A DNA stretch of 64,000 nt from Pseudomonadales bacterium (GTDB lineage: Bacteria; Pseudomonadota; Gammaproteobacteria; Pseudomonadales; Azotimanducaceae), in NCBI GenBank assembly GCA_965267275.1, contig OZ253950.1, positions 121,333-185,332 on the forward strand, read 5' to 3'. Positions 15,170 through 36,552 of the stretch are shown piece by piece. A program made the position numbers and the translations under genes. The notes beneath the pieces are model-generated. The model made no database searches. It saw nothing but the letters and a program-made list of their open reading frames with translations, and was not told the origin of the DNA. Position 1 is the first letter of the stretch; every line of letters starts with the position of its first letter.

Positions 15170-15246
15170 GGGCCTATAGCTCAGTTGGTTAGAGCAGTGG
15201 ACTCATAATCCATTGGTCCCAGGTTCGAGTCCTGGTGGGCCCACCA
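15170..15246 (+). tRNA. tRNA with CAT anticodon, most likely tRNA-Ile2 (lysidine); integration target
   Basis: GGGCCTA/TGGGCCC acceptor stem, AGCTCAGTTGGTTAGAGC D arm, GTGGA-CTCATAA-TCCAT anticodon arm, CCAGG-TTCGAGT-CCTGG T arm, encoded CCA. Position after rpoD is typical of Ile2 (knowledge). Confidence 0.95.
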
Positions 15247-16759
15247 TACCAACATTGCCACCGCCAAAGTGCTCTAAGAGCTTGAAAGGTAAGGTGGTTT
15301 CGGCGGTTCTATATCCCTCGTTTCGCACATAGGTCGGACGTTCCCTAAAAGTGAGTTTTAGCACCGCTCTCTTGTCTTCAATGTGCTTAGAACTCCATAA
15401 AAAACAAGGATTTGCCAAAAAGGCACAGGCGGTTCTATAAAGTTCATCAAAGTGCCTTAAAGGTCTGCCCAGCTTCCCTATAGTTTCCTGTGTTTCCAGT
15501 TTCTGTCTTTCCATCTCTTTGATCTGCTCTTCATAAGCGTTTATCAAAGACGGTGAATCTGTATTAACAACCCGACTCACGAGCTGCGATGTTTTGCGCT
15601 CAAGTGTTGCCAGTTGCGCGCGGAGTTTTTCGCGTCTTGAGTTTTGAAATGCGAGCTGGTGTTCCCACTGATCGCGGAACATCGCGAGCGCAAGTTTAAG
15701 TAGACCGGGCGAAGGCTTGTAAGACGCTAGAAGCTCGCCAAACTCTCCTTCGATTTGATCGCGACGAATGGACTTACCGTAGTCGTCGCACTTGCGGTTC
15801 TGGCAAACGTAGTAGGGGTAGTGTTTATTGCGTCCCTTCGTCCAGGAGGCGGTATAAGGCGATCCGCATCCACATTGAACGAAACCTCTCAAAGGGAAAT
15901 CGATATCTAAGTTTTTGCGCGCCGGTGCATGCGCTGTTTCATTCAGACGCTCCTGAACTTTTCGGTAGGTCGCAATTTCAATTAGACCTTCATGGTGCCC
16001 CTGACGAGCACTTACGTCCCATCCGTCTTGGGTAGCCTCCACAATGCCCGCATAGAGCGAGCGCCCCAAAATGTCCGCGACTTGTTGACGCCGGACTTCT
16101 CCGTGTTTGTTCCTTGGGAACTCCGGATGCTTCTCAAAAAAGCGGCCAACTTCTGCCTGAGTCTGAAATCGGCCTGAAGCAAAACCTTCCAAGCCCTCGC
16201 GCACGATGCTGGCAAGTGGCTCATCTTGAAGCAATATTTTGCCTCGGCCCTTTACCCGCTTATAACGATAGCCGACTGGCGCTCTAAATACCCAATATCC
16301 GTTCATAAGCCGAGCGCGCATGCGGTTGCGGACTTGTTCGCCGTTTAAAAGGCGTTGATGCTCGCTCACTGTGGCGAGTACCCGCTCAACAAGTATGGAA
16401 TGAGAATCCTCTCCGAATTCAACAGAGGGCGATTCCAAGACCCCTCCAGCTTCAGCGATAGCCGACCTCAATGCTAGATGCGCCTCAAGGCCTCTAGCCA
16501 GGCGGGAGATGTCATCAATAATGCAAACCGTCGCGGCTGGTTTTCTTCTTCGCATGAATTTAAGCATCGCTTGCATGCCGGGCCGATCGATCAATCCACC
16601 GGAAAGATCATCTTTGAAAATCTCAATGACGTTCATGCCGCGGTAGCTCGCATATTCACGGCAACGCGTCTCTTGCGAGCCGAGACCATCACCTTTAACG
16701 GTTTGCTTGGTTGAAGATACGCGGCAATAGATAACAGCTTGGTTCGGTTCTTCGCTCAT
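15203..16759 (-). CDS. Large serine recombinase (integrase); C-terminal 14 aa encoded antisense to the tRNA
   Basis: AVIYCRVSS catalytic motif, DDISRLAR, recombinase domain (APVGY), zinc ribbon LRGFVQCGCG...YYVCQNRKC, coiled coil. Confidence 0.93.
   Translation of the reverse strand: MSEEPNQAVIYCRVSSTKQTVKGDGLGSQETRCREYASYRGMNVIEIFKDDLSGGLIDRPGMQAMLKFMRRRKPAATVCIIDDISRLARGLEAHLALRSAIAEAGGVLESPSVEFGEDSHSILVERVLATVSEHQRLLNGEQVRNRMRARLMNGYWVFRAPVGYRYKRVKGRGKILLQDEPLASIVREGLEGFASGRFQTQAEVGRFFEKHPEFPRNKHGEVRRQQVADILGRSLYAGIVEATQDGWDVSARQGHHEGLIEIATYRKVQERLNETAHAPARKNLDIDFPLRGFVQCGCGSPYTASWTKGRNKHYPYYVCQNRKCDDYGKSIRRDQIEGEFGELLASYKPSPGLLKLALAMFRDQWEHQLAFQNSRREKLRAQLATLERKTSQLVSRVVNTDSPSLINAYEEQIKEMERQKLETQETIGKLGRPLRHFDELYRTACAFLANPCFLWSSKHIEDKRAVLKLTFRERPTYVRNEGYRTAETTLPFKLLEHFGGGNVGMVGPPGLEPGTNGL
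15241..15247 (+). repeat. attL core (CCACCAT)
   Basis: Overlaps the tRNA CCA end; identical 7-mer at 36357-36363. Confidence 0.75.
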
Positions 16760-17055
16760 TCTTGATCACCTTCGATTTGGTCCAGCGCGCGTTGCGCGCT
16801 CTCTTGGAATTCAGCGTCCAGCTGCTTCAGCTGGCTTTGTATATGCTCGGTAAAAATCTGAACCGAATCCAATCCAAATCCGATATCGACAAATACTCGC
16901 ATCATGTTCCAGAGTGTTTCTAAGAACTCTTGCGCCTGATCTTCAGGTATTTGCATTTCATCGAGATAGGTTTGGTAGCGCTTTGGATTGAGGCGCAAAG
17001 GTTCGGCTCGTTCAATCTGACATTCATCAATTATTTCTTGTACACCCTCTGTCAT
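16756..17055 (-). CDS. Hypothetical protein coupled to the integrase start (candidate directionality factor)
   Basis: ATG at 17055 preceded by AAAGGA; stop overlaps the integrase ATG by 4 nt; 99 aa. Confidence 0.7.
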   Translation of the reverse strand: MTEGVQEIIDECQIERAEPLRLNPKRYQTYLDEMQIPEDQAQEFLETLWNMMRVFVDIGFGLDSVQIFTEHIQSQLKQLDAEFQESAQRALDQIEGDQE

Positions 17056-17191
17056 TTGGTGCCGTCCTTTCTTAAAGTTTTTGGGCTTGCGTTCGTCTCC
17101 TTGTTGAATAGAACAAAAGAAGAACACTTATCAGTTTTGCTGGCGGTTGCGCAAGCAAAAAATGGAGCACGGATTCACTTTTTAGTGGAAA

Positions 17192-35825: not shown

Positions 35826-36259
35826 TTTTCGTGCCCGGGCCGTAAGCCGAGCGCGATAAAGAGACAATCACGCATGGCAAGAACGGCTTGAGCGGCTTCT
35901 TCAAGCTGGGCCTCAACGTCGTCCCTGACATCGATTGTTCCGATATTGGCCGACTTTGCGAGCTGATTGAGATTCGAGCTCAGCCTGGAGCGGCCTAACT
36001 CTGCCAATACTTGGGCAAGTTTCTGTTCATCCACGCGCGGCTTTCGGGATTTGCGCCGCTTAGTGGCATCCTCACCGAAAAGCCGTTCCCGAATGAATGC
36101 GCCAAGGGGTTGATTTCCAGCCTGGTCTTCGAGGATCTGCCGTTCGCGCCGTGAGAGCCGCAGAGAGAAGGGCGCGGGTCTATCCAGCTCTGGGTTAGGC
36201 TTGCAGGCTGCTTCGTTGAAGTTAGTGCGATATGATTTAGGTGTTGACGGAGCGCTCAT
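35822..36259 (-). CDS. mobC: Mobilisation accessory protein MobC
   Basis: RHH-like FSLRLSRRERQIL, LAELGRSRLSSNLNQLAKSAN; AAGGAG RBS. Confidence 0.85.
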   Translation of the reverse strand: MSAPSTPKSYRTNFNEAACKPNPELDRPAPFSLRLSRRERQILEDQAGNQPLGAFIRERLFGEDATKRRKSRKPRVDEQKLAQVLAELGRSRLSSNLNQLAKSANIGTIDVRDDVEAQLEEAAQAVLAMRDCLFIALGLRPGHEK

Positions 36260-36363
36260 TATGATGGCTCCTTAAATGAAGGGACCTCAGTGGTCAGATA
36301 GTCGTTCCATTCTTGAAGAGTTTCAAAAAGGTGGTTCGAGGTTTGTCCCTCTAGGTCCACCAT
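36259..36363 (-). other. Orphan in-frame 34-aa tail predicted to become the integrase C-terminus after excision
   Basis: MVDLEGQTSNHLFETLQEWNDYLTTEVPSFKEPS*; begins exactly at the attR core (ATGGTGG); its TAA overlaps the mobC ATG. Confidence 0.7.
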
Positions 36364-36552
36364 GTCAGCCGCCCTCGAGGGCGGCTTTACCGAGTTTTGC
36401 TCTTCGAGCAAAACGTCGTCAGTTCGTTCGAAGCTGTGCCTGCTTCTAGCTTAGCTTGGTTCGAGGTTGGTCCTTTTTGGCCGACCATGTCGTCCGCGCC
36501 TTGAGGCGCGGACTTATCGAGTTTTGCGCAAAGCGCAAAACTCGCCCAGTTC
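36333..36552. repeat. Two imperfect ~95-bp direct repeats (125-bp period), each an att-like arm plus two hairpins
   Basis: GGTTCGAGGTT..ACCATGTC at 36333 and 36458, each followed by a GC hairpin and a GTTTTGC..GCAAAAC hairpin, then CAGTTC. Confidence 0.85.
36357..36363 (+). repeat. attR core (CCACCAT)
   Basis: Identical to 15241-15247; GGTTCGAG upstream as in the tRNA T-loop. Confidence 0.75.

Follow-up and report, generated by a model that had tools for sequence, protein, structure and literature searches.

A mobilizable element at a tRNA CCA end whose attachment sites carry the tRNA T-loop motif with a 5-bp offset

Introduction

A 21,116-bp element (15248-36363) that encodes a large serine recombinase lies at the CCA end of a tRNA(CAU) gene in a 64,000-nt stretch of DNA, referred to below as the window, from a Pseudomonadales bacterium of the Azotimanducaceae (contig OZ253950.1 of GCA_965267275.1, positions 121,333-185,332). 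In reviews and surveys, tRNA ends are described as targets of tyrosine integrases, and elements with serine recombinases as inserting in protein genes (PMC5704250, PMC10484663). An earlier sequence-only reading of the window proposed that the motif TCGAG lies 5 bp further from the core in the element arm than in the tRNA arm, as in attP versus attB of a serine integrase. With a probability of about 0.8, our analyses support an integrative mobilizable element (IME) that was inserted at the tRNA CCA end by its own serine recombinase, using two motifs in the left half of each site, the outer of which is shifted by 5 bp.

The element and its attachment arms

The element is bounded by a 7-bp direct repeat, CCACCAT (15241-15247 and 36357-36363), and the GC content, about 0.60 in the flanks, falls to 0.50 across 15-36 kb. 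At unoccupied sites in species of the genus (G001, G014 and G009), the tRNA gene runs through CCACCAT directly into GTC(A/G) and then into the same hairpins as in the window, and the corresponding junction in G012 reads CCACCACGTC. Because these sites continue uninterrupted through CCACCAT and GTC, the boundary is confirmed to the base; the GC step and the uninterrupted sites of the relatives both bear out the boundary drawn in the sequence-only reading. The target gene was found by ARAGORN, which labels it Met, and by the Rfam tRNA model (74.7 bits); rpoD (13224-15065) is located directly upstream, and by synteny the tRNA is probably tRNA-Ile2. The features of the element and its arms are as follows.

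15248-36363, no strand: whole IME, with a type IV coupling protein (T4CP), a helix-turn-helix (HTH) protein, a type I restriction-modification (RM) system, a NucS-like nuclease, YgjP and Hachiman
15170-15246, plus strand: tRNA(CAU) gene, the B arm of attL
15222-15229, plus strand: T-loop motif GGTTCGAG in the B half-site, tRNA positions 52-59; proposed zinc-ribbon-domain motif in the attB register
15241-15247, no strand: attL copy of the core CCACCAT (tRNA C71 to A76, plus T+1)
15248-15275, no strand: P' arm, with no mirrored T-loop motif, overlapped by the 3' end of the minus-strand integrase gene
36333-36340, plus strand: GGTTCGAG as repeated in the P arm, 5 bp more distant from the core than in the tRNA; proposed zinc-ribbon-domain motif in the attP register
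36341-36345, plus strand: 5-nt spacer GTTTG (family consensus sTTTC) between the equivalents of A59 and T60, from a register analysis of 21 pairs
36346-36356, plus strand: inner P arm (TCC...GGT), in the register of tRNA positions 60-70; proposed recombinase-domain binding region
36357-36363, no strand: attR copy of the core CCACCAT

In the tRNA arm, TCGAG (15225-15229) represents T55-G59 of the T-loop and is followed by 13 nt (T60-C72) and then by A73-C74 at 15243-15244; in the element arm, TCGAG at 36336-36340 is separated by 18 nt from the AC at 36359-36360. These positions, and that of CTCGA to the right of the core, had all been given correctly in the sequence-only reading. The motif shared by the two arms is longer than TCGAG and consists of the 8-mer GGTTCGAG (15222-15229 and 36333-36340). 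The pattern GGTTCGAG-N(8-25)-CCACCAT matched twice in the window and not once in 100 shuffles.

The recombinase

The recombinase gene occupies the left end of the element.

15203-16759, minus strand: large serine recombinase of 518 amino acids (aa), with Pfam Resolvase and Zn_ribbon_recom domains; its open reading frame (ORF) crosses attL into the tRNA gene

Its catalytic domain (PF00239, E 6.7e-21) contains the motif YCRVSS, in which R13 and S15 do not vary among 47 homologues, and its zinc ribbon (PF13408, E 2.2e-9) has four cysteines (C296, C298, C319 and C324) that are invariant in the same homologues. The recombinase domain PF07508 gave a weak match below the cut-off (E 0.043) and is a precomputed annotation on many of the homologues. 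The AlphaFold2 model (predicted local distance difference test, pLDDT, 76) has long helices at 352-399 and 403-429, and aligns over its full length with the integrases of SPbeta, Bxb1 and PhiC31 and with the C-terminal domains of the Listeria innocua LI integrase (E 1e-18 to 1e-10), to which the identity is about 20% over the C-terminal domains. Sequence and predicted structure identify the enzyme as a genuine member of the large serine recombinases, having catalytic, recombinase and zinc-ribbon domains and a coiled coil; the Pfam domains, the invariant serine and cysteines and the model matches uphold its original assignment to the serine integrases.

The last 14 codons of the integrase gene (15203-15246) are antisense to the tRNA (..MVGPPGLEPGTNGL). 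The same frame relation is found throughout the family, in that 85 of the best 120 database homologues end with M-x5-[FLIV]-E-P. Because this ending is what the CCA end and the T-loop encode when translated in antisense, these 85 homologues sit at tRNA ends in the same register.

The offset in related elements

The homologues of this integrase share 39-60% identity and comprise at least 2,692 database matches at E below 1e-20. They were present in 27 of 401 sampled alphaproteobacterial species (about 7%); for the class to which the window belongs, the figure was 8 of 401 genomes, counting that of the window itself. At 40 of 42 homologue loci, the integrase gene converged on a tRNA gene and its 3' end overlapped that gene, and the target tRNAs belonged to nine amino-acid classes (Arg, Ser, Leu, CAU, Glu, Val, Phe, Ala and Tyr). 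Far ends were located via the relaxase gene or by taking up to 40 kb of the element. Both ends were obtained for 22 elements, and the register and arm profiles were computed on 21 pairs; G047b, G047c, G581, G729, G563, G585, G571, G611, G539 and G671 had no P arm in the available DNA (contig end or longer element) and were uninformative.

We found the same P-arm layout in 22 of 22 elements: GTTCGAR, a 5-nt spacer, and TCC...N71-C72-N73-CCA. A regular expression allowing a spacing of 14-20 nt gave one site per far end, always GTTCGAA followed by 17 nt and NNCCA, the corresponding spacing in the tRNAs being 12 nt, and when spacings between 6 and 30 nt were scanned, the maximum was at 17. As a safeguard against ascertainment bias, a position weight matrix with positions 63-73 masked was also used, and it again found one strong site per element. 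Specifically, G53-A59 matched the tRNA solely when shifted by 5 (81-100% of the 21 pairs), positions 60-62 (81-86% of pairs) and 71-76 matched unshifted, and positions 68 and 70 of the inner P arm showed a cognate excess. Relative to the tRNA 3' segment, the P arm has 5 additional nt, placed precisely at the A59/T60 junction, and an offset identical in all 22 elements is far beyond chance. Aligning the att sites of homologous elements, a check suggested with the sequence-only reading, has thus turned the 5-bp outward shift of a single locus into a conserved rule of the family. Since tRNAs of nine classes share only the T-loop and the CCA end, the earlier proposal that the enzyme reads the T-loop is also well founded.

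In some P arms the motif is not a copy of the cognate T-loop. G488 has GTTTAAA where its tRNA has GTTCGAA, G845 and G617 have GTTCAAA, and G826 has GTTCGAG against GGTTCAATCC in its tRNA (these far ends lie within L062-L063, L073-L074, L077 and L052). The variants indicate that positions 56-57 tolerate transitions.

When a tree of the integrases was compared with target class, about six changes of class were needed and clustering was moderate. The tree contained no very close pair of enzymes with different targets, and protein- and DNA-determined specificity were not separable there.

A model for recognition of the left half-sites

In the published model of the LI integrase, the zinc-ribbon-domain motif occupies positions 16-24 in attP and 11-19 in attB, and the recombinase domain binds positions 1-12 in both (PMC3783163). 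The 5-bp shift that the sequence-only reading gave for the LI/A118 enzyme agrees with this model, and so does the offset of the 22 elements. By analogy, the recombinase studied here would read the left half of attB as the tRNA T-loop, T-stem and 3' strand of the acceptor, and would use the same pair of DNA motifs to recognize the left half of attP. The inner motif, TCC...N71-C72-N73-CCA, has the same register in both sites and would presumably contact the recombinase domain and the alphaE linker. The outer motif, GTTCGAR, is presumably contacted by the zinc-ribbon domain; in attB it directly adjoins the inner motif, and in attP the 5-bp spacer, which corresponds to half a helical turn, moves it outwards. 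The positions of the motifs are read directly from the sites, and the pairing of domains with motifs is borrowed from the LI integrase.

Four points weigh against this model. With AC as the centre, GTTCGAA falls at positions 20-26 of attP versus 16-24 in LI, and it is 2-5 bp further out with any allowed crossover. Part of a small ORF or integrase tail is encoded in the P arm, whose conservation could to some extent reflect coding. The 22 pairs are linked by phylogeny and do not count as independent cases; the tree needs approximately six target-class changes. Finally, the right half-sites carry no mirrored motif, which is unusual for serine integrases.

Right half-sites and the crossover

The att sites of serine integrases are normally imperfect dyads. 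In the 21 pairs, attB and attP did not show imperfect inverted repeats around the crossover. The sequence-only reading had proposed a symmetric attB, TCGAG-13-AC-13-CTCGA, in which CTCGA in the B' arm would be a functional zinc-ribbon motif and AC (15243-15244) the crossover dinucleotide. The mirrored CTCGA does exist, at 36374-36378 and 13 nt after AC, and has a chance of only about 1.5% in arms sampled from the flanks (40-mers, with the centre free within the shared core). However, it coincides with a hairpin.

36368-36388, plus strand: B' hairpin GCCGCCC-TCGA-GGGCGGC followed by TTT and containing CTCGA; homologous hairpins are present in G001, G014, G012 and G009

CTCGA represents the closing C and the TCGA loop of this hairpin, and in the unoccupied sites of the genus the homologous hairpins have compensatory changes and loops reading CTTGA (G014), CCTTG (G001 and G012) or CTTTG (G009). 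The hairpin is conserved; a simple terminator scan did not call it, the T tract being too short, and a role as terminator is not proven. In addition, the B' arms had no information content in any column across 11 and then 21 elements, and when matches to TTCGAAC were profiled at every offset in the 21 pairs, the mirrored motif was not enriched in B'. The proposed dyad therefore does not hold for the family, and the CTCGA of the window is, judging from these comparisons, most likely a coincidental hairpin loop. The P' arms of the 21 pairs also contained no mirrored motif, as the sequence-only reading had already cautioned for the window; their peaks reflected conserved integrase coding sequence alone. 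The att sites are strongly asymmetric, with the T-loop motif seen in the left half-sites only.

The crossover can be narrowed by the identity between attL and attR, which is exact over just 5-10 bp in most pairs. The left edges of the identity blocks fall at positions 66-72 and the right edges from A76 up to +14, and the blocks intersect at tRNA positions 72-76 (15242-15246 in the window). No pair had a mismatch at 72-75, and so the blocks do not pin the dinucleotide; we infer that the 2-bp crossover lies somewhere in positions 72-76, where AC is one of four candidates.

In the element of L021/L033, attL and attR are identical for 19 bp, reaching 14 bp to the right of CCA (CACCATTCCATTTTTTCCC), which suggests that its B' arm may be a P' remnant of an earlier element, by accretion. 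In L034, the attR of the L025 element, the core is duplicated in tandem in the P arm (CCGCCATG-TCCGCCAT).

Several observations agree with AC as the crossover. It lies inside the shared core, and the identity block 71-76 is centred on 73-74. In 22 of 22 pairs the discriminator N73 of the tRNA recurs in the P arm, which a crossover involving position 73 would demand; N71 recurs in 21 of 22 (for non-cognate pairs the fractions are 0.53 and 0.41, respectively), and all P arms found in the search with positions 63-73 masked matched the cognate N73. An AC centre would give half-sites of about 21-22 in attB and 26-27 in attP, nearer to those of known integrases than a CA centre. The site geometry favours a centre at or to the left of 73-74; were the centre further right, the zinc-ribbon motif would sit 3-5 bp outside the place that it takes in LI. 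A palindromic central dinucleotide, however, abolishes polarity in serine integrases, and 14 of 21 relatives have palindromes at 72-73 (CG) and 73-74 (GC), whereas CC (74-75) and CA (75-76) are universal and non-palindromic. The earlier choice of AC is consequently retained only as one candidate: we would put 73-74 only slightly ahead of 74-75, neither being more likely than not, and regard 72-73 and 75-76 as less likely positions, on a par with each other. The complete model, with a symmetric dyad, a functional CTCGA and crossover at AC, is itself unlikely.

The almost invariable copying of cognate positions 71 and 73 by the P arms (21 pairs, from the window and loci L013-L045 and L046-L077) goes beyond the 2-bp identity that a serine recombinase should need. 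The tracking spans approximately six target switches among enzymes that are 50-60% identical; because the tree needs that many changes of target class, it is not merely inherited. One rather improbable explanation is that the choice of target tRNA is set largely by the attP DNA, through an identity of about 6 bp, and not by the protein, so that these integrases could be retargeted by editing attP and their crossover rules would differ from the 2-bp paradigm. If this is true, a palindromic GC centre might be tolerated, with the extreme asymmetry of the half-sites setting polarity.

Other explanations for the P-arm motif

The P-arm GTTCGAR could instead have been kept for a coding role (..S-N-x-L-F-E.. 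upstream of mobC) or a regulatory one, with the 5-bp offset a by-product. The P arm does code on the minus strand: the reverse complement of C75-A76-T+1 makes an ATG that opens a frame of 34 codons, and in the circular form of the element the integrase frame would continue through these codons across the P arm (36259-36363; MVDLEGQTSNHLFETLQEWN...) and end at a TAATG overlapping the start of mobC. Downstream of the motif, the peptide LFExLxxWN is conserved across the family with synonymous variation. Within the motif itself, however, conservation is at the nucleotide level and includes third codon positions, yet three elements, those with the GTTCAAA and GTTTAAA variants, encode Leu instead of Ser at the overlapping codon; that GTT is invariant despite this change argues for a constraint on the DNA rather than on the protein. 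Moreover, the same 7-mer is that of the tRNA T-loop, the sole feature besides CCA common to all target tRNAs, and its spacing to CCA is constant to the base. We consider a purely coding or regulatory origin of the offset quite improbable.

That the attR arm is a decayed tRNA 3'-end repeat of the tyrosine-integrase type, with an incidental 5-nt indel, would suit the classical targeting of tRNA 3' ends by tyrosine integrases (PMC5704250, PMC10484663) and the tRNA-like sequence shared by attL and attR, but is very improbable given the identical placement of the 5-nt insertion in 22 of 22 elements with different tRNA targets and the shortness of the exact identity in most pairs, and it was rejected, as a Pfam scan of all ORFs of at least 250 aa in 15248-36363 found no tyrosine recombinase (PF00589).

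Gene content and neighbouring sequences

Besides the 518-aa recombinase, the element encodes a VirD4/TraG coupling protein, an HTH protein, a MobA/VirD2 relaxase, a NikA/MobC-like protein and defence cargo. The relaxase and NikA/MobC-like genes adjoin attR, and relaxase homologues adjoin the P arm in the related elements too.

34566-36259, minus strand: mobilization module of a MobA/VirD2-type relaxase and a NikA/MobC-like accessory protein (Pfam)

Among the ORFs of 15248-36363, no genes for a type IV secretion system (T4SS) were found beyond that for the VirD4/TraG coupling protein. From this gene content, the element is an IME, with its own integrase and relaxase module and without a complete mating-pore T4SS. 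The cargo at 21639-34515 is a defence block consisting of a type I RM system (HsdM, HsdS and HsdR), a NucS/PD-(D/E)xK-like nuclease located between hsdS and hsdR, a YgjP-like metallopeptidase, and Hachiman, represented by HamA and a 1171-aa helicase.

A second att-like sequence lies about 125 bp downstream of attR.

36458-36553, plus strand: second, degenerate att-like copy, consisting of GGTTCGAG, 18 nt, ACCATGTC and a hairpin (alignment)

Its hairpin shows compensatory changes and is followed by a second hairpin. The same relic is found about 125 bp downstream of the unoccupied tRNA site of G001, and a more decayed version in G009. Because it is present beside the unoccupied site of G001, this copy is chromosomal and older than the present element; from its sequence, it looks like the relic attR of a lost related element.

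In three species of the same genus, the anticodon loop of the same tRNA(CAU) gene is interrupted by about 260-280 inserted nt (L009, 1602-1860; also L002 and L006). The insertion in G009 is a group I intron (Rfam RF00028, 78.9 bits), and the tRNA(CAU) genes of the window and of G001 have no intron.

Comparison with known systems and significance

The Listeria innocua LI/A118 integrase (Rutherford et al. 2013, PMC3783163; PDB 4KIS) is likewise a multi-domain large serine recombinase with a coiled coil, and its attP and attB half-sites contain the same motif shifted by 5 bp, with an inner region in common register. In the family described here, unlike LI, the motif is the tRNA T-loop, is confined to the left half-sites and is 2-5 bp further from the centre; and whereas the attB of LI is inside comK, here it is the end of a tRNA gene.

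The ssrA islands of Dehalococcoides, with the recombinase DsiB (McMurdie et al. 2011, PMC3146451), are also mobilizable, have a large serine recombinase gene that abuts and overlaps attL, target the tRNA-like 3' end (T-loop region) of a stable-RNA gene, and are followed by tandem relics. They differ in having a second, small serine recombinase, DsiA, and in targeting the T-loop of tmRNA with a 20-bp repeat. Compared by description, the window element has a single recombinase, belongs with elements at many tRNA targets and has a 7-bp core at the acceptor/CCA end; neither the DsiB-DsiA pair, the tmRNA target nor the 20-bp repeat that mark the ssrA island/DsiB family was found in it.

Islands and IMEs with tyrosine integrases at tRNA 3' ends (e.g. 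NBU1; PMC5704250) share the target, the tRNA left intact after insertion and the mobilizable cargo, but their recombinase family is unrelated, and the present element has no long exact direct repeat. Their sites consist of a core with arm sites, whereas those described here have half-site motifs with a 5-bp register shift. Firmicutes IMEs with serine recombinases (the Tn4451 family, and those inserting in rumA or in integrative and conjugative elements) also combine a single serine recombinase with a relaxase; they disrupt dispensable protein genes or have low specificity, whereas the proteobacterial family targets tRNA ends without disruption.

A full-text literature search gave no description of a proteobacterial serine-integrase family landing on the CCA end of many tRNAs. 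The mechanism would be of the LI/A118 type, but the target class and the tRNA-mimic attP appear to be undescribed, the nearest precedent found being DsiB at the T-loop of the tmRNA gene. We regard as doubtful the broader suggestion that these integrases form a very large undescribed family for which the T-loop and CCA end common to all tRNAs would serve as a general-purpose landing site.

With attB fixed and universally conserved and attP a mimic of the tRNA carrying 5 extra nt, natural sequences directly display the 5-bp zinc-ribbon shift that the LI structure predicts, replicated in about 20 elements, and so provide a natural test of the structural model. The rule that the left arm of attP equals the tRNA 3' segment with 5 nt added after A59 allows the far ends of such islands to be located in genomes; many of the islands carry defence systems, as that of the window does with its type I RM and Hachiman.

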